Origin: Gaiellaceae bacterium | Lineage (GTDB): Bacteria > Actinomycetota > Thermoleophilia > Gaiellales > Gaiellaceae | NCBI GenBank assembly: GCA_036259875.1 | Contig: DATAAZ010000024.1 | Span: 7,997 to 71,996, forward strand | Direction: 5' to 3' | Length of the DNA stretch: 64,000 bases | Part shown: one piece after another, positions 215 to 9,931 of the stretch | How the letters are laid out: each line of letters starts with the position of its first letter | How positions within the stretch are numbered: the stretch's first letter is position 1 | Position numbers and translations under genes: made by a program | Notes under the pieces: generated by a model | Databases searched by the model: none | The model's input: only the letters and a program-made list of their open reading frames with translations | Told to the model about the DNA's origin: nothing

Positions 215-1420
215 ATGGAGCAGCTGTATCCCCCGTCGATCACCGGGGTCGACTTCGCCGCGGGCGGGAGCGTCCTCGAGCATCGCTACGGCGAGAGCGA
301 CGCGTACACGCTCGGCGTCGAGGAGGAGTACATGCTCCTCGATCCAGAGACGTTTGACCTCGTACAGCACATCGACACGGTCCTGTCGCAGGTCCATGAC
401 GAGGAGTTCGTGGCCCGGATCGCGCCGGAGCTGATGCAGTCCGTGCTCGAGATCTCGACTCCCGTCTGTCACAACGCGGGCGACGTGGACAAGGAGCTTC
501 GCAAGCTGCGTGCATACGTCACCGACCTCGGCCGGAGGGAGAACTGCCGCGTCGGGTCGGCCGGGACGCACCCGTTCAGCCTTTTCGAGCGGCAGCGGAT
601 CACGGCGCGCGACCGGTACCGAGCGCTCGTCGACCAGCTGCAGTACGTCGCGCGGCGCGAGCTCATCTTCGGGATGCACGTCCACGTCGCCGTCGACGAC
701 CCCGAGAAGGCGATCAAGATCCTGAACGCGCTCCTCGTCCACCTCGGCGACCTGCTCGCGCTGACCGCGAACTCGCCCTTCTGGCGCGGCGAGCTGACGG
801 GGCTCGCGTCCACCCGCCAGATGGTTTTCGCGGCCTTCCCGCGCTCGGGCGTCCCGCCTCGGTTTCGCGACTACAGCGACTACGCGGCCGTCGTCGGCCA
901 GCTCGAAAAGACGGGCTGCATCGCGGACTACACGCACATCTGGTGGGACGTCCGGCCGCACCCGAAGTGGGGCACGATCGAGGTTCGCGTCATGGACGCC
1001 GTCACCCGAGTGGAGGACGCGGTCGCGATTGCGGCCTACATCCAGTCGCTCGTAAAGCACTACTCGGAGCGATACGAGGCGGGCCACGAGCTGCCGTCGT
1101 TCCACCGCATGCTCGTCACGGAGAACAAGTGGCTCGCGGGGCGCTACGGGCTCGCGGCGCCCGTCATGGACCTCATGACCGGCCGGCGTAACCGCGTCCC
1201 GGTCTCGCAGCTCATCCGCCGGACGCTTCGCGACGTCGAGCCGCACGCGCGCGAGCTCGGTTCCGAGCGCGAGCTCGAGGGGATTCGCGAGATCCTCGCG
1301 CACGGGAGCGGCGCCGACCGCCAGCGTCGCGTCTTCAACGCGAACCGGGACGTCGTCGAGGTCGTGCGCGAGATCGCCGACCTGACCGAGCGCGTCGAGG
1401 CGCCGCCCGTCGCCGCGTGA
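215..1420 (+). CDS. ybdK: carboxylate-amine ligase, YbdK / glutamate-cysteine ligase family 2 (GCS2)
   Basis: 401-aa ORF from ATG 215. Family hallmarks are TLGVEEEYMLLD near the N-terminus, FGMHVHV and RPHPKWGTIEVRVMD. Confidence 0.85.
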   Translation: MEQLYPPSITGVDFAAGGSVLEHRYGESDAYTLGVEEEYMLLDPETFDLVQHIDTVLSQVHDEEFVARIAPELMQSVLEISTPVCHNAGDVDKELRKLRAYVTDLGRRENCRVGSAGTHPFSLFERQRITARDRYRALVDQLQYVARRELIFGMHVHVAVDDPEKAIKILNALLVHLGDLLALTANSPFWRGELTGLASTRQMVFAAFPRSGVPPRFRDYSDYAAVVGQLEKTGCIADYTHIWWDVRPHPKWGTIEVRVMDAVTRVEDAVAIAAYIQSLVKHYSERYEAGHELPSFHRMLVTENKWLAGRYGLAAPVMDLMTGRRNRVPVSQLIRRTLRDVEPHARELGSERELEGIREILAHGSGADRQRRVFNANRDVVEVVREIADLTERVEAPPVAA

Positions 1421-1887
1421 TCGGCGTCGGCGAGCGGGCGCCGAACCCCCGGGTCTGGCTTGCTCCCCGTCGGCCCGTCCGCCTGCACGAGCTCGCGCCC
1501 GCCGGCGAGGCGATCGTCGTCCTCTTCTATCTCTTCGACTGGTCGAGCACCTGAACGGACGAGATGCTTCTCCTGCGTGACAGGAGAGAGGAGCTCGAGT
1601 CACTCGGGGTCAGCGCCTTCGGAGTCTCACGCGACAGCCCCTACTCGCACGTCGCGTGGCGCGAGGCGCTCGATCTCGACGTGCCGCTCCTCTCGGACTG
1701 GAACGCAGAAGCGGTGCGCAGCTTCGGGGTCGCCCACGAGTACCGAGGACTCGCCGAGGTCGCCGAGCGCTCGGCGTTTCTCCTCGACCGCGACCGCGTC
1801 GTCCGCTGGACGAGGCGCTACGACACCGACGAGGTGCCCGACTTGGATGAGCTCGTAGCGGCGGCGCGGCGGCTGGTTCCGGAGTAG
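1417..1887 (+). CDS. AhpE/BCP-type peroxiredoxin with in-frame UGA (candidate selenocysteine) at the peroxidatic position
   Basis: GTG 1417 overlaps the ybdK stop (GTGA). 45 sense codons follow, then TGA 1552-1554, then the 107-aa ORF 1564-1887 in the same frame. The joined 156-aa product resembles AhpE-like peroxiredoxins end to end: IGVGERAPNP, VVLFYLFDWSST-U-TDEMLLLRD (U where FFPLAFTGxC has Cys), PLLSDW, ERSAFLLDRD. Standard ORF calling recovers only the 3' part. Confidence 0.6.
1568..1588 (+). promoter_or_regulatory. candidate bacterial SECIS hairpin downstream of UGA 1552-1554
   Basis: tTCTCCTG-cgtga-CAGGAGAg forms 7 Watson-Crick pairs plus one G-U, with a 5-nt loop containing GU. The stem starts 13 nt after the UGA and the loop lies about 22 nt after it. 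This is within the range described for bacterial SECIS elements. Confidence 0.45.
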
Positions 1888-3574: not shown

Positions 3575-4765
3575 CTACGCGGGCAGGCTTCCTGCGACCC
3601 CCTCGACGTACCAGTCCCAGCGCAGGATCGCGTCGAACGGCATTTCCTCGCCCTCCGGGACGCGCACCTTGCCCTTCGAGTCCTTGATCGGCCCGACGAA
3701 CGGGTTGAACGAGCCCTCCTTGAGGGCGGCGTACTTCTCGTCGAACTCGGCCCTAACGTCGTCCGGGACGGAGCTCCCGAGCGGCGCGAGCTCGACGGTG
3801 CCGTCCTCCGGCGTTCCCCAGAAGTCGTGCGTCTTCCAGGTGCCCTCCATCGCCTTCGTCACCTGCTCGACGTAGTACGGCCCCCAGTTCCAGACGACCG
3901 CGGTCAGGAAGGCGTCCGGCCCGAAGCGGCTCATGTCCGAGTTCCATGTGGCGGAGTACACGTTCTCGTGCTTGGCCGCTTCCTCGAGGATGGCGGGGCT
4001 GTCCTCGACCCCGGAGAGCACGTCGGCGCCGGCGTCGATCAGCGAGCGCGCCGCCTGCGTCTCCTTCGGCGGGTCGTACCACGTGTTGATCAGTACGGCT
4101 CTCGTGGTTGCGTTCGGGTTGACACTGCGTGCCCCGAGCGTGAACGCGTTCGCGTCGACGACCACGTCGGGAATCGGGAACGAGCCGACGAAGCCGAGGC
4201 GGTTGCTGCGGGTCATCCGCCCCGCGACGAGACCGATCAGGTACATGGCGCCCCAGTGGACGCCGTAGTACGTGGCGACATTTTCGGCGCGCTTGTAGCC
4301 CGAGCAGTGCTCGAAGATCACGTCCGGGTGCTGCGTTGCACGCTGGAGGACGGCGTCGCCATAGCCGAAGCTCGTTGCGAAGATGACCTCGTTCCCCTGC
4401 GCGATCAACTGGTCGAGCGCGGGCCCCGCGTTCGCCTCGGGGACGTTCTCGATCGCGGTCGTCTCGATGTTCGGAAGCTTCTCCTCGAGGTACTTGCGCC
4501 CTTCGTCGTGCTGGAACGTCCAGCCGGCATCGCCGGGCGGGCCGAGGTAGACGAAGCCGACCTTCATCCGCCTCTCGGCGCCTGCGTCCTCGCGATCCGT
4601 TTCGCCGGCCTCTTCCTCGTCGCCGCCGCACGCTGCGAGGAGCGCGCCGAGCGTTGGCAGCGACAGCCCAAGCGCCGCTCCCCGCCTCAGAAGCTCCTGG
4701 CGGCTGACCGCCCCCTCGCGCACCGCGCGGCGAAGCTCGGCCGCGTCCCTGTCACGACTGTCCAT
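3575..4765 (-). CDS. BMP-family (PnrA-like) ABC transporter substrate-binding protein
   Basis: ATG 4765 is preceded by GGAAGGAGAAG. A Tat-like signal (SRQELLRRGAALGLSLP...LAAC) precedes the BMP body (KVGFVYLGPPGDAGW, FATSFGYGD, NTWYDPP). The longer 673-aa raw ORF has an Arg/Asp-rich shadow N-terminus. Confidence 0.88.
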   Translation of the reverse strand: MDSRDRDAAELRRAVREGAVSRQELLRRGAALGLSLPTLGALLAACGGDEEEAGETDREDAGAERRMKVGFVYLGPPGDAGWTFQHDEGRKYLEEKLPNIETTAIENVPEANAGPALDQLIAQGNEVIFATSFGYGDAVLQRATQHPDVIFEHCSGYKRAENVATYYGVHWGAMYLIGLVAGRMTRSNRLGFVGSFPIPDVVVDANAFTLGARSVNPNATTRAVLINTWYDPPKETQAARSLIDAGADVLSGVEDSPAILEEAAKHENVYSATWNSDMSRFGPDAFLTAVVWNWGPYYVEQVTKAMEGTWKTHDFWGTPEDGTVELAPLGSSVPDDVRAEFDEKYAALKEGSFNPFVGPIKDSKGKVRVPEGEEMPFDAILRWDWYVEGVAGSLPA

Positions 4766-6656: not shown

Positions 6657-8420
6657 GTGCTCCGAACGCGGCTTTCGGAGATCACGCGCTCGCTGAGCGA
6701 CGTGTGCATGGGGCGCGAGCCGGCCGACGTCGTGATCACGCGCGGCCGACTCGTCAACGTCCACACGCGCGAAGTGCAGGACGGCGTCGAGGTCGCGCTG
6801 AAGCACGGACGCGTCGCGATGTTCGGCGACGCCTCGCACACGCGCGGCCCGGATACGGAGACGATCGACGCCGACGGGGCATACCTCGTCCCCGGCCTCA
6901 TCGACACGCACCTGCACGTCGAGTCGGCGATGGTGACGGTGACACGGTTCGCCGAGGCCGTTCTCCCGCACGGGACGACGAGCGTCCTCATCGACAACCA
7001 CGAGATCGCGAACGTGTTCGGGCTCGAGGGGATCCGCTGGATGCTCGAGGAGGGATCGCGCCTCCCGCTGAAGGTCTTCCTCGCCGTCCCCTCGTGCGTT
7101 CCCGCGCTCCCGGGCTTCGAGGACGCGGGCGCCGTCATCGGCCCCGAAGAGATCCGGACCGCGCTCGCGTGGCCGGGTGTCGGCGCGCTCGGCGAGATGA
7201 TGAACATGCCGGGTGTGATCAACTCCGACCCGGCGGTGCACGAGGAGGTCGCTGCGGCGCTCGACGCCGGCTACCCGGCAACCGGTCACTGGAGCCTGGC
7301 CGGGTGGCGCGACCACCGCCTCCACGCGTACGCGTCCGCCGGGATCGACTCCGACCACGAGACCGTCGAGAAGGAGGACGGCCTCGCGAAGCTTCGGGCC
7401 GGCATGTGGCTTCAGCTCCGCGAGGGGTCCGCCTGGCACGACGTCGCTACGCTCGCGCCCCTGATCAACGAGGACGGGGTCGACCCTCGCCACTGCCTGC
7501 TCGTCACCGACGATGTCCACCCGGAGACCCTCGCCTCCGTCGGCCACATGAATCACGTCGTCCGAACCGCGATCGACGCGGGCATCGACCCACTGATCGC
7601 GATCCAGCTTGCGACGGTGAATCCGGCCGAGTACATGGGGATGCGCCACGACGTCGGTTCCATCGCGCCCGGGCGCGTCGCGGACATCCTGTTCGTGGAG
7701 GACCTCCGGGCGATGCGGCCGCACCTCGTCCTCGCCGACGGCGCTCCGGTCGGCGAGCTACCCCGCTACGAATACCCGCCGGCCGCGCGCGAATCGGTTC
7801 GGCTACCGCCGGCGCTCGCGCCAAGCGACCTTCGCGTCGAGGCGAGCGGCGAGACGGCGCGCGTGCGCGCGATCGGAATGGTGCCGGGCGTGCTCGCGAC
7901 CGAGCATCGCATCGTGGAGGCCCCGGTTTTGGACTCCGAGGTGCGGGCCGTCCCGGAGCTCGACCTCGCGAAAGCGGCAAGCATCGAGCGCCACGGCGGG
8001 CCCGGGACGATCGGCCTCGGGTTCGTCCAGGGGCTCGGGTTGGCGCGCGGCGCCGTCGCGACGACGGTCGCGCACGACAACCACAACCTGCTCGTCATCG
8101 GGATGAGCGACGCGGAGATGCTCTTCGCCGTCGAGCGGCTCCGCAGATCGGGCGGAGGCATGGTCGCCGTGGCCGACGACGACGTGCTCGCCCAGGTCGA
8201 GCTTCCGATCGCGGGACTCATGTCCGATCGTCACGTCGCCGAGGTCGCTGAGCAGGTGCGCGCGCTCGACCGAGCGTACAAAGAGCTCGGCTGCGCGCTT
8301 GAGTACCCGTTCATGTTCGTCTCGCTGCTCTCGCTCGGCGTCATCCCGGCGCTCCGCCTCACGAACCGCGGCTTCGTCGACGGGCTCAAGTTCGAGCTCG
8401 TTCCCCCGCTCGCCCAGTGA
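6657..8420 (+). CDS. ade: adenine deaminase
   Basis: 587-aa ORF from GTG 6657. Motifs GREPADVVITRGRLVNV, GLIDTHLHVES, LPHGTTSVLIDNHEIANV, LGEMMNMPGV, DHET and IAPGRVADILFV match AdeC-type adenine deaminases. Confidence 0.88.
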   Translation: MLRTRLSEITRSLSDVCMGREPADVVITRGRLVNVHTREVQDGVEVALKHGRVAMFGDASHTRGPDTETIDADGAYLVPGLIDTHLHVESAMVTVTRFAEAVLPHGTTSVLIDNHEIANVFGLEGIRWMLEEGSRLPLKVFLAVPSCVPALPGFEDAGAVIGPEEIRTALAWPGVGALGEMMNMPGVINSDPAVHEEVAAALDAGYPATGHWSLAGWRDHRLHAYASAGIDSDHETVEKEDGLAKLRAGMWLQLREGSAWHDVATLAPLINEDGVDPRHCLLVTDDVHPETLASVGHMNHVVRTAIDAGIDPLIAIQLATVNPAEYMGMRHDVGSIAPGRVADILFVEDLRAMRPHLVLADGAPVGELPRYEYPPAARESVRLPPALAPSDLRVEASGETARVRAIGMVPGVLATEHRIVEAPVLDSEVRAVPELDLAKAASIERHGGPGTIGLGFVQGLGLARGAVATTVAHDNHNLLVIGMSDAEMLFAVERLRRSGGGMVAVADDDVLAQVELPIAGLMSDRHVAEVAEQVRALDRAYKELGCALEYPFMFVSLLSLGVIPALRLTNRGFVDGLKFELVPPLAQ

Positions 8421-9931
8421 ACGACAGGGAGCACCTCGTCGCGCTCCGCGGGATCGTCAAGCAGTTCCCGCGCGTGCGCGCGAACGATCGCGTCGACTTC
8501 GACCTTCGCGCGGGTGAGATCCATGCGCTCCTGGGCGAGAACGGCGCCGGAAAGACGACGCTCATGAACATCCTCACCGGGCTCTACCGCGCGGACGAGG
8601 GCGAGATCCGGATCCGCGGCGAGCCCGTCGAGCTCCGGTCCCCGCGGCACGCGATAACGCGTGGGGTCGGGATGGTGCACCAGCACTTCCGCCTCGTCGA
8701 CCGCTTCACCGCTGCGGAGAACGTGACGCTCGGCTGGCACTCGCCGCGAACGGTCATCCGCCGGCGCCCGCTCGAGGAGGAGATCCAGCGCCTCTCGGAA
8801 CGCTACCGGCTGCGCGTCGACTCGGCCCGACCCGTGTGGCAGCTCTCCGTCGGCGAGCAGCAGCGGATCGAGATCCTGAAGAACCTCTACCGCGGCGCGG
8901 ACATCCTCATCCTCGACGAGCCGACCGCCGTGCTCACGCCCCAGGAGGCGTCCGGCCTCTTCGAGAGCCTGCGCGAGATGGCGGCGGCCGGACGCGGCGT
9001 GGTCTTCATCACGCACAAACTGGAGGAGGTGACGGCCGTCGCGGACCGCGTAACCGTCCTCCGGCGCGGCCGCAACGTTGCGACCGTCGCGAGGGCAGAC
9101 ACGAGCGAGCCGGAGCTTGCGCGGATGATGATCGGGCACGAGCTGCCCGAGCGGCGAGCCGAGAGCGCGGCCGAGCCGGGGGAGGTCGTCCTCGCCGTCT
9201 CGGGACTCGAGGCAGACGATGACCGGGGTCTCCGGGCGCTGAGCGGAATCGAGCTCGAGGTTAGGGCAGGAGAGATCGTGGCAATCGCCGGCGTCGCCGG
9301 GAACGGGCAGCGCGAGCTCACCGAGGTCCTCGTCGGCCTTCGCCCGGCGCGCGCCGGGAGGATCGTCTTCCGGAATCGCGACGTCACGAACGCCTCGGTT
9401 GCTCGCAGGATCGCCGCAGGGATCGGCTATTGCCCCGAGGATCGGCTCCGGCAGGGCGTGGCGCCCTCGCTCTCGGTGACCGACAACCTGATCAGTAAGC
9501 GCTACCGAAGCGCGCCCGTGGGACATCGCTTTCTCCTCCGCCGCCGCCAGGCGCGCCGCGTGGCGGCCGAGCTCGCGCGCCGCTTCGACATTCGCGGCGC
9601 CGACCTCGACGCGCCCGCGGCGACGCTGTCGGGCGGGAACGTGCAGAAGCTCGTCTTGGCGCGCGAGTTGAGCGCCGATCCGGCGCTGCTCATCGCCGCC
9701 CAGCCGACGCGCGGGCTCGACGTCGGCGCCGCCGAGTTCATCCGCCGGTTGCTCCTCGAGCAGCGGGCGCGCGGTCGCGCCGTGCTCGTGATCGGCGAGG
9801 ATCTCGACGAGCTGCTCGAGATCGCCGACCGGATCGCGGTCATCTACGAGGGCGCGATCAACGGCGTCTTCCGCGCACGTGAGGCGAACGAGGAGCGCAT
9901 CGGCCTCCTGATGGCGGGGCGCGCGGCGTGA
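8417..9931 (+). CDS. ABC transporter ATP-binding protein (duplicated ATPase, nucleoside/sugar type)
   Basis: 504 aa; GTG 8417 overlaps the upstream stop (GTGA). Walker A GENGAGKTT, signature LSVGEQQR and Walker B ILILDEP are present, and a second ATPase half carries LSGGNVQK. Confidence 0.92.
   Translation: MNDREHLVALRGIVKQFPRVRANDRVDFDLRAGEIHALLGENGAGKTTLMNILTGLYRADEGEIRIRGEPVELRSPRHAITRGVGMVHQHFRLVDRFTAAENVTLGWHSPRTVIRRRPLEEEIQRLSERYRLRVDSARPVWQLSVGEQQRIEILKNLYRGADILILDEPTAVLTPQEASGLFESLREMAAAGRGVVFITHKLEEVTAVADRVTVLRRGRNVATVARADTSEPELARMMIGHELPERRAESAAEPGEVVLAVSGLEADDDRGLRALSGIELEVRAGEIVAIAGVAGNGQRELTEVLVGLRPARAGRIVFRNRDVTNASVARRIAAGIGYCPEDRLRQGVAPSLSVTDNLISKRYRSAPVGHRFLLRRRQARRVAAELARRFDIRGADLDAPAATLSGGNVQKLVLARELSADPALLIAAQPTRGLDVGAAEFIRRLLLEQRARGRAVLVIGEDLDELLEIADRIAVIYEGAINGVFRAREANEERIGLLMAGRAA

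Follow-up and report, generated by a model that had tools for sequence, protein, structure and literature searches.

An in-frame UGA at the catalytic position of a Gaiellaceae peroxiredoxin

We analyzed a 64,000-nucleotide stretch of DNA from a Gaiellaceae bacterium (assembly GCA_036259875.1, contig DATAAZ010000024.1, positions 7,997 to 71,996), called the window below, and found that its nucleotides 1417-1887 very probably encode a 156-residue peroxiredoxin (Prx) with selenocysteine (Sec) at position 46, specified by the in-frame UGA at 1552-1554. Five observations carry this reading: UGA pairs with the catalytic Cys of homologues, the UGA is found across species, both sides of it are under coding constraint, an RNA constraint immediately downstream is specific to the UGA forms, and selA, selB and tRNA-Sec are present in the lineage.

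A sequence-only reading of the window had taken the 107-aa open reading frame (ORF) starting at ATG 1564 as part of a Prx whose frame is open upstream to GTG 1417, and all of its coordinates were confirmed. TGA 1552-1554 is the sole interruption of the frame, the GTG start overlaps the TGA stop of the preceding ligase gene as GTGA (1417-1420), and the gene terminates at TAG 1885-1887. When Cys is substituted for the stop, the read-through product matches the Pfam family AhpC-TSA (PF00578) across the stop, over residues 4-131 (E=1.2e-24; 87 bits vs a cut-off of 26). Cys homologues of full length (152-160 aa) share about 70% identity with this product, and in alignments with them and with BCP structures the UGA occupies a column of invariant Cys, the peroxidatic position to which it had been assigned.

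The shortened annotation that had been suspected for this gene is widespread. Gene callers report the Prx as a 45-aa plus a 107-aa product (44 aa plus 104 aa elsewhere). In a protein search with the read-through product, 38 of the best 120 matches are 104-108 aa long, all starting MLLLRDRR like the window ORF, and nine more of these 120 carry Trp at the catalytic site (P0028, P0032, P0038, P0043, P0049, P0052, P0054, P0079, and P0091). P0032 is the sole Trp entry compared with its DNA, which reads TGA (L002, 631-633); the Trp in this entry is a gene-caller artefact that comes from a genetic code with TGA as Trp. When a different member's C-terminal ORF served as the query in a second protein search, 6,977 matches were obtained; the best 120 are all shortened forms, and some of the shortened entries each represent hundreds of sequences.

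Conservation of the UGA codon among relatives

The genome scan covered one genome per species (GTDB representatives) and found 590 relatives, of which the best 80 loci were analyzed. Nearly all of the 80 come from metagenome-assembled genomes (MAGs) labelled Gaiellaceae, Gaiellales, Thermoleophilia, or Actinomycetota. The catalytic codon is TGA in 73 of these best 80 loci and TGC in the remaining seven, so that UGA and Cys co-align at one codon; TAA, TAG, or a non-Cys sense codon occurs at this position in none of the 80. The true terminator of the Prx gene is TAG at 57, TGA at 15, and TAA at 10 loci.

In a neighbour-joining tree (unbootstrapped) the seven close Cys forms (L004, L006, L008, L010, L011, L013, and L017) fall within the TGA clade as two groups, and more distant Cys forms are scattered among the TGA forms. 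Since the Cys forms nest in the TGA clade and one SECIS (see below) is shared, the tree tentatively suggests a single gain of Sec followed by several Sec-to-Cys reversions. Two further observations concern the distribution of the gene. One MAG carries two TGA-form Prx copies on two contigs (CAVVAB010000001.1 and CAVVAB010000006.1; L014 and L015). A contig labelled 'Candidatus Binatia bacterium' (JBEVNX010000215.1; L044) carries a Gaiellales-type TGA Prx and is probably mis-binned.

A hairpin downstream of the UGA restricted to the UGA forms

Codons +6 to +10 after the UGA read CTC CTG CGT GAC AGG and encode a hairpin (Table 1). These codons are near-invariant at all three positions in the 74 distinct TGA forms, even though CGT and AGG account for only 5.9% and 3.1% of the Arg codons in this genome; at another invariant Arg of the Prx the codon is CGC in 62, CGG in 6, CGA in 3, and CGT in 3 sequences. 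For the same peptide the seven Cys forms use CGC/CGG, and they retain 2-4 of the 7 stem pairs, whereas among 59 distinct TGA-form segments all seven pairs are present in 46 and six in another 12. The constraint lies at the RNA level: the TGA forms keep rare codons at synonymous sites, and the Cys forms lack the hairpin. This comparison marks the hairpin as an RNA element that accompanies the UGA.

The closing pair of the stem varies among GC (50), CG (6), UA (1), and GU (1), with a covariation score that was matched by 1 out of 500 shuffles. One Gaiellaceae bacterium (L074, DATDFL010000304.1, approximately 4050-4090) has the hairpin GCUCUUG-CGGGA-CAAGAGC, in which an internal C-G pair is changed to U-A by a synonymous Leu change together with an Arg-to-Lys replacement (LLRDK for LLRDR), and the loop GU is changed to GG. 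Apart from the Prx site, the hairpin motif was found nowhere in 2.3 Mb of related DNA, including the sequence downstream of any other TGA.

The geometry had been described as that of a bacterial Sec insertion sequence (SECIS), and this description agrees with the published bacterial SECIS criteria at every point. The apical loop is 5 nt (3-9 nt required) and the upper stem 7 bp (4-16 bp); the second loop nucleotide is G, with U or G after it (at least one G required in the first two positions); the UGA-to-loop spacing is 21 nt (16-37 nt); and the minimum free energy is about -11 kcal/mol (-7.5 kcal/mol or lower required), the folding energy of the 24-nt hairpin being -10.9 kcal/mol. RNAalifold (69 sequences) also predicts a lower helix pairing columns 15-18 with 49-52. 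For the most part this helix is conserved, the only variation being G-U/G-C; since the Cys forms encode the same segment, it does not count as specific evidence for a SECIS.

Sec-decoding genes in the lineage

The sequence-only reading had called for a search for selA, selB, selD, and tRNA-Sec. The outcome was divided: the window has none of the four, while selA, selB, and tRNA-Sec were found elsewhere in the lineage and share ENA assemblies with the TGA-form Prx. The lineage genes were recovered by back-translating the pyridoxal phosphate (PLP)-lysine motif of SelA, which E. coli and Aquifex share without change, with G/C third positions and scanning metagenome contigs for it. Each of the 120 loci returned has selA, in many cases together with selB, selD, and tRNA-Sec. 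A group comprising L182, L162, L095, and others matches the Gaiellales pool in tetranucleotide composition at 0.98-0.99, vs 0.97 for Gaiellales with itself, and has the gene order selA, methyltransferase-like gene, selB, tRNA-Sec. The Gaiellales-like selA has an intact PLP-lysine motif, selB carries the specific SelB Pfam domains, and the tRNA-Sec, whose anticodon is UCA and whose discriminator is G, scores 66.8 bits in Rfam (gathering score 47) and is also called by ARAGORN. Near-identical SelA proteins adjoin SelB on contigs as long as 2.99 Mb, as they do in MAG GCA_005883245.1, labelled 'Actinobacteria bacterium'.

Two kinds of evidence connect these loci to the Prx. The L118 selA locus encodes an ATP-binding cassette (ABC) exporter with 81% aa identity to those of named Gaiellaceae loci, where the exporter gene lies 2-3 kb from the TGA-form Prx. 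In addition, the ENA assemblies ERZ25039556 and ERZ25039584 each contain one selA-selB contig and one TGA-Prx contig, and the tetranucleotide correlation of the paired contigs is 0.98. The link between Sec machinery and the TGA-form Prx thus has strong support at the level of lineage and assembly, and is not proven for a single genome. The NCBI-sourced records for SelA (P0144, P0230, and P0183) and for Prx (P0301 and P0306) come from different assemblies or bulk metagenomes. A selA position 15-20 kb from the Prx, considered on account of a sigma-factor gene common to L206/L207 and L071, was discarded because tblastx gave no further collinearity. A search for other genes with in-frame TGA, using a coding-potential filter, returned only gene junctions, the filter being too strict (7 out of 75 Prx sites recovered).

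The gene between selA and selB is O-methyltransferase-like (Pfam Dimerisation + Methyltransf_2) and was seen in L182 (9025-13093), L207 (10001-13976), L209, L210, and L212. It is missing from VAXT01 (L208). The tRNA-Sec gene lies 3' of selB in L182.

Peroxiredoxin type and predicted mechanism

The protein had been called AhpE-like, and this stands for the fold and the 1-Cys character; by sequence it is nearer to BCP/PrxQ. The nearest solved structures by sequence are archaeal BCP/PrxQ (2cx3, 9e-19), and M. tuberculosis AhpE follows at 1e-9. A structure model of a 72%-identical Cys homologue (predicted local distance difference test, pLDDT, 94.5) gives a template modeling (TM) score of 0.91 to Bcp4 and 0.87-0.89 to AhpE (root-mean-square deviation about 2.0 A) and places position 46 in the first turn of helix 44-55. 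The active-site motif is S43-S-T-U46 (T/S-x-x-C(U)) with Ser43 conserved, and the active-site Arg (R118, in AERSAF) is invariant in the alignments. Seven residues before U46, Leu replaces the canonical Pro (FYLFDWSSTU, 1531-1554) in the TGA forms and close Cys forms alike, while the distant Cys homologues P0025 and P0026 retain Pro (FYPFDWSSTC). The Leu is a deviation of the subfamily and does not affect the profile match. The NCBIfam PrxU model NF040737 scores 38.9 bits (cut-off 270), and no NCBIfam equivalog attains its cut-off.

Because the protein contains no Cys, it should be a 1-Sec enzyme in need of an external reductant. In the mechanism that we propose, SelB would supply Sec at the UGA, competing with release factor 2 for the codon, and the predicted target of SelB would be the hairpin. 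The enzyme would then reduce peroxides via a selenol/selenenic-acid cycle and be recycled by an external thiol reductant, as are 1-Cys peroxiredoxins. Some JGI annotations of homologues read 'mycoredoxin-dependent peroxiredoxin'.

Alternative readings of the UGA

Several results weigh against Sec insertion. ARAGORN and tblastn with E. coli SelA, SelB, and SelD found no selA, selB, selD, or tRNA-Sec in the 64-kb window, and the same searches found none in the 80 orthologous loci with 10-kb flanks (approximately 1.3 Mb); lineage-specific SelA and SelB probes also had no match in the window and the orthologous flanks. In the Gaiellales-like loci, selD was not found adjoining selA/selB. The ERZ records resemble per-sample assemblies, not single genomes, because their numbers span about 140 accessions and only some contigs of one record are also in NCBI genomes. 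As to the hairpin, single-sequence folding of 1552-1615 is no better than that of shuffled sequences (z=-0.26), no Rfam match was obtained at the gathering score or at E<=10, and covariation supports two pairs only in a stem that is otherwise largely invariant. The significance of the hairpin therefore derives from the cross-species comparison only, not from the single-sequence fold. Upstream of the UGA, the crude pN/pS is only 0.65. Conservation of the UGA, constraint on the hairpin, and intact orthologues favor Sec nevertheless, as had been proposed from the sequence, and the alternatives fare less well.

The UGA could be recoded to a residue other than Sec, either to Cys by a tRNA(Sec)-like tRNA(Cys) acting via SelB and the hairpin, or to Trp or Cys by near-cognate decoding that the hairpin stimulates. 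SelB-dependent insertion of Cys at UGA, by way of a non-canonical tRNA(Cys), is on record for some bacteria, and the comparative data, which prove a conserved recoding event and an RNA element, do not tell which residue is inserted. However, the selA of the lineage with its intact PLP-lysine motif weighs against non-Sec recoding, and the tRNA of the lineage is a canonical tRNA-Sec whose discriminator is G, not the U typical of tRNA(Cys). Cys can also be encoded directly, as by TGC in seven relatives, and a UGA with a costly frozen hairpin would bring no obvious benefit if the product were Cys. We consider this explanation decidedly unlikely.

A split gene, with a 45-aa peptide and a separate 107-aa fragment from ATG 1564, or a pseudogene would agree with the output of the gene callers and with the ATG found at codon +4 in 57 of the 74 TGA forms. 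But ATG, GTG, and TTG are all absent from codons +1 to +6 in 17 of the 74, and from the first 20 codons in 8, so in the 17 forms without a nearby start codon the product needs read-through and there is no independent C-terminal start. The stop is always TGA and always exactly at the catalytic Cys codon, and neither fragment would hold the catalytic residue. Both halves are open and conserved in the 74 species: no TGA form has an extra stop or frameshift, either in the 42 codons before the UGA or in the 100 codons after it, which also answers the earlier concern about disrupted orthologues. In the upstream segment the Prx frame is open in 74 out of 74 forms, while the other five frames have stops in 10-74 of them. 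A variant genetic code can be set aside as well, for TGA is the terminator of 27 out of 49 confident window genes and therefore an ordinary stop with no general reassignment. Intact frames, missing starts, and the terminating role of TGA together make a split gene or a pseudogene very unlikely.

It could also be argued that the hairpin is a by-product of the LLRDR peptide or of high GC content, or has another role such as mRNA stability, and that the TGA is tolerated via an unrelated mechanism. The LLRD/ER peptide is indeed conserved in the Cys forms too, GC-rich DNA folds readily, as the shuffling result indicates, and the same segment of the Cys forms still reaches about -7 kcal/mol. Yet the Cys forms make this peptide with CGC/CGG and keep only part of the stem while the TGA forms all use CGT and AGG; in L074 the Arg-to-Lys and synonymous Leu changes together restore pairing; and the motif is unique to this site within the related DNA searched. 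These points render a by-product highly improbable. Finally, a sequencing or assembly error at 1552-1554, which would be the prior expectation for a single MAG only, can be dismissed because more than 85 independent assemblies show the same TGA, among them the 73 species representatives, two JGI contigs, and ten further contigs from different samples, long-read assemblies included.

Gene neighborhood

The features of the Prx locus are listed in Table 1. The upstream gene product matches Pfam GCS2 (4.8e-53) and NCBIfam NF010039 (405 bits vs a cut-off of 371). In 50 loci, among them all seven Cys forms, a YbdK/GCS2 ligase gene lies no more than 4 kb upstream of the Prx; in the window the two genes are probably co-transcribed. 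The adjacent ligase gives a hint, no stronger than that, of a low-molecular-weight thiol partner for the Prx.

Table 1. Coordinates of the Prx gene, its RNA elements, and the adjacent ligase gene in the window.
Feature	Position	Strand	Description
Sec-peroxiredoxin coding sequence (very probable)	1417..1887	+	156 residues; GTG start, UGA-Sec codon 46, TAG stop
Peroxidatic U46, in-frame UGA	1552..1554	+	Aligned with the invariant catalytic Cys
SECIS apical hairpin (putative)	1569..1587	+	Stem TCTCCTG 1569-1575/CAGGAGA 1581-1587, 7 bp, extendable by U1568-G1588; loop CGUGA (CGTGA) 1576-1580
SECIS lower helix (tentative)	1560..1597	+	CGAG 1560-1563 with CUCG 1594-1597
YbdK/GCS2-family carboxylate-amine ligase (glutamate-cysteine-type)	215..1420	+	5' of Prx; stop overlaps Prx start

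A different neighborhood was seen in L213-L220 (approximately 7650-9850), from the species with Prx P0257. There an extracytoplasmic function (ECF)-type sigma factor gene, a 364-aa gene, and a Peptidase_M74 gene are directly upstream of the Prx, with GCS2 about 4 kb further upstream. The 364-aa gene product has no Pfam match.

Relation to known systems

Sec-containing Prx is a known selenoprotein class, as the sequence-only reading had said. Twelve members were counted in a 2006 survey and 91 in 78 organisms in a 2016 survey, and a 2026 review lists the family as validated and cites a characterized member. The window protein shares with this family (PF00578; PrxU of Eubacterium acidaminophilum is characterized) the Prx fold, the T/S-x-x-U motif with Sec in place of the peroxidatic Cys, an in-frame bacterial SECIS-like element 3' of the UGA, and the existence of Cys homologues. 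It differs from the PrxU subfamily in that it is about 155 aa long, of the predicted 1-Sec type, and has Leu for the Pro of PxxxT/SxxC.

Among Cys enzymes, the BCP/PrxQ proteins of Aeropyrum pernix (2cx3/4gqf) and Sulfolobus (Bcp4, 3hjp) rank first among solved structures both by sequence (9e-19 to 3e-16) and by fold (TM 0.91 for the homologue model) and have the same S-x-x-C-T-x-E context at the catalytic residue, but many of them possess a resolving Cys five residues downstream that the window protein lacks. M. tuberculosis AhpE is likewise actinobacterial, 153 aa long, and 1-Cys without a resolving Cys, and depends on mycoredoxin/mycothiol (TM 0.87-0.89); unlike the window protein it uses Cys, keeps PxxxTxxC, and has a sequence similarity (1e-9) below that of BCP. 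The proposed SECIS resembles the E. coli fdhF/fdnG SECIS-SelB system in being a coding stem-loop just 3' of the UGA, with G and then U/G in a small apical loop, a spacing within 16-37 nt, and dedicated selA, selB, and tRNA-Sec genes (in the Gaiellales-like loci). It differs in that there is no primary-sequence similarity and no Rfam match, and in that the Gaiellales-like selA and selB are split by the methyltransferase-like gene.

Gaiellaceae are aerobic soil Actinomycetota. As hosts of a probable selenoprotein they differ in this respect from the selenoprotein-rich organisms of the surveys, which are mostly anaerobes. The literature that we searched, including the BSepDB paper and the 2026 review, has no relevant mention of selenocysteine together with Gaiella or Thermoleophilia. 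What is new is the BCP/AhpE-like 1-Sec subfamily, distinct from PrxU, its Gaiellaceae hosts, the breadth of its conservation, and the scale of its mis-annotation; the mechanism itself is standard.

Implications

One could speculate that the Prx is the main or only selenoprotein maintaining the Sec machinery across Gaiellaceae, with the nested Cys forms marking lineages that are losing or have lost the machinery. We regard this as unlikely. If it were true, it would run contrary to the view that formate dehydrogenase or SelD upholds the Sec trait and that aerobes rarely keep selenoproteins, and selenium supply would limit the defence against oxidative stress in a hard-to-culture group.

The reading of 1417-1887 as a Sec-peroxiredoxin gene corrects a systematic annotation error, in which thousands of database entries are cut down to 104-108 aa or show a false Trp, with the catalytic residue missing. 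It provides a natural Sec/Cys series of one enzyme for the study of Sec retention vs loss, and a well-defined short SECIS for a lineage without a cultured genetic model. A family of common soil Actinomycetota, where selenoproteins have been thought rare, appears to use Sec in a front-line antioxidant enzyme.

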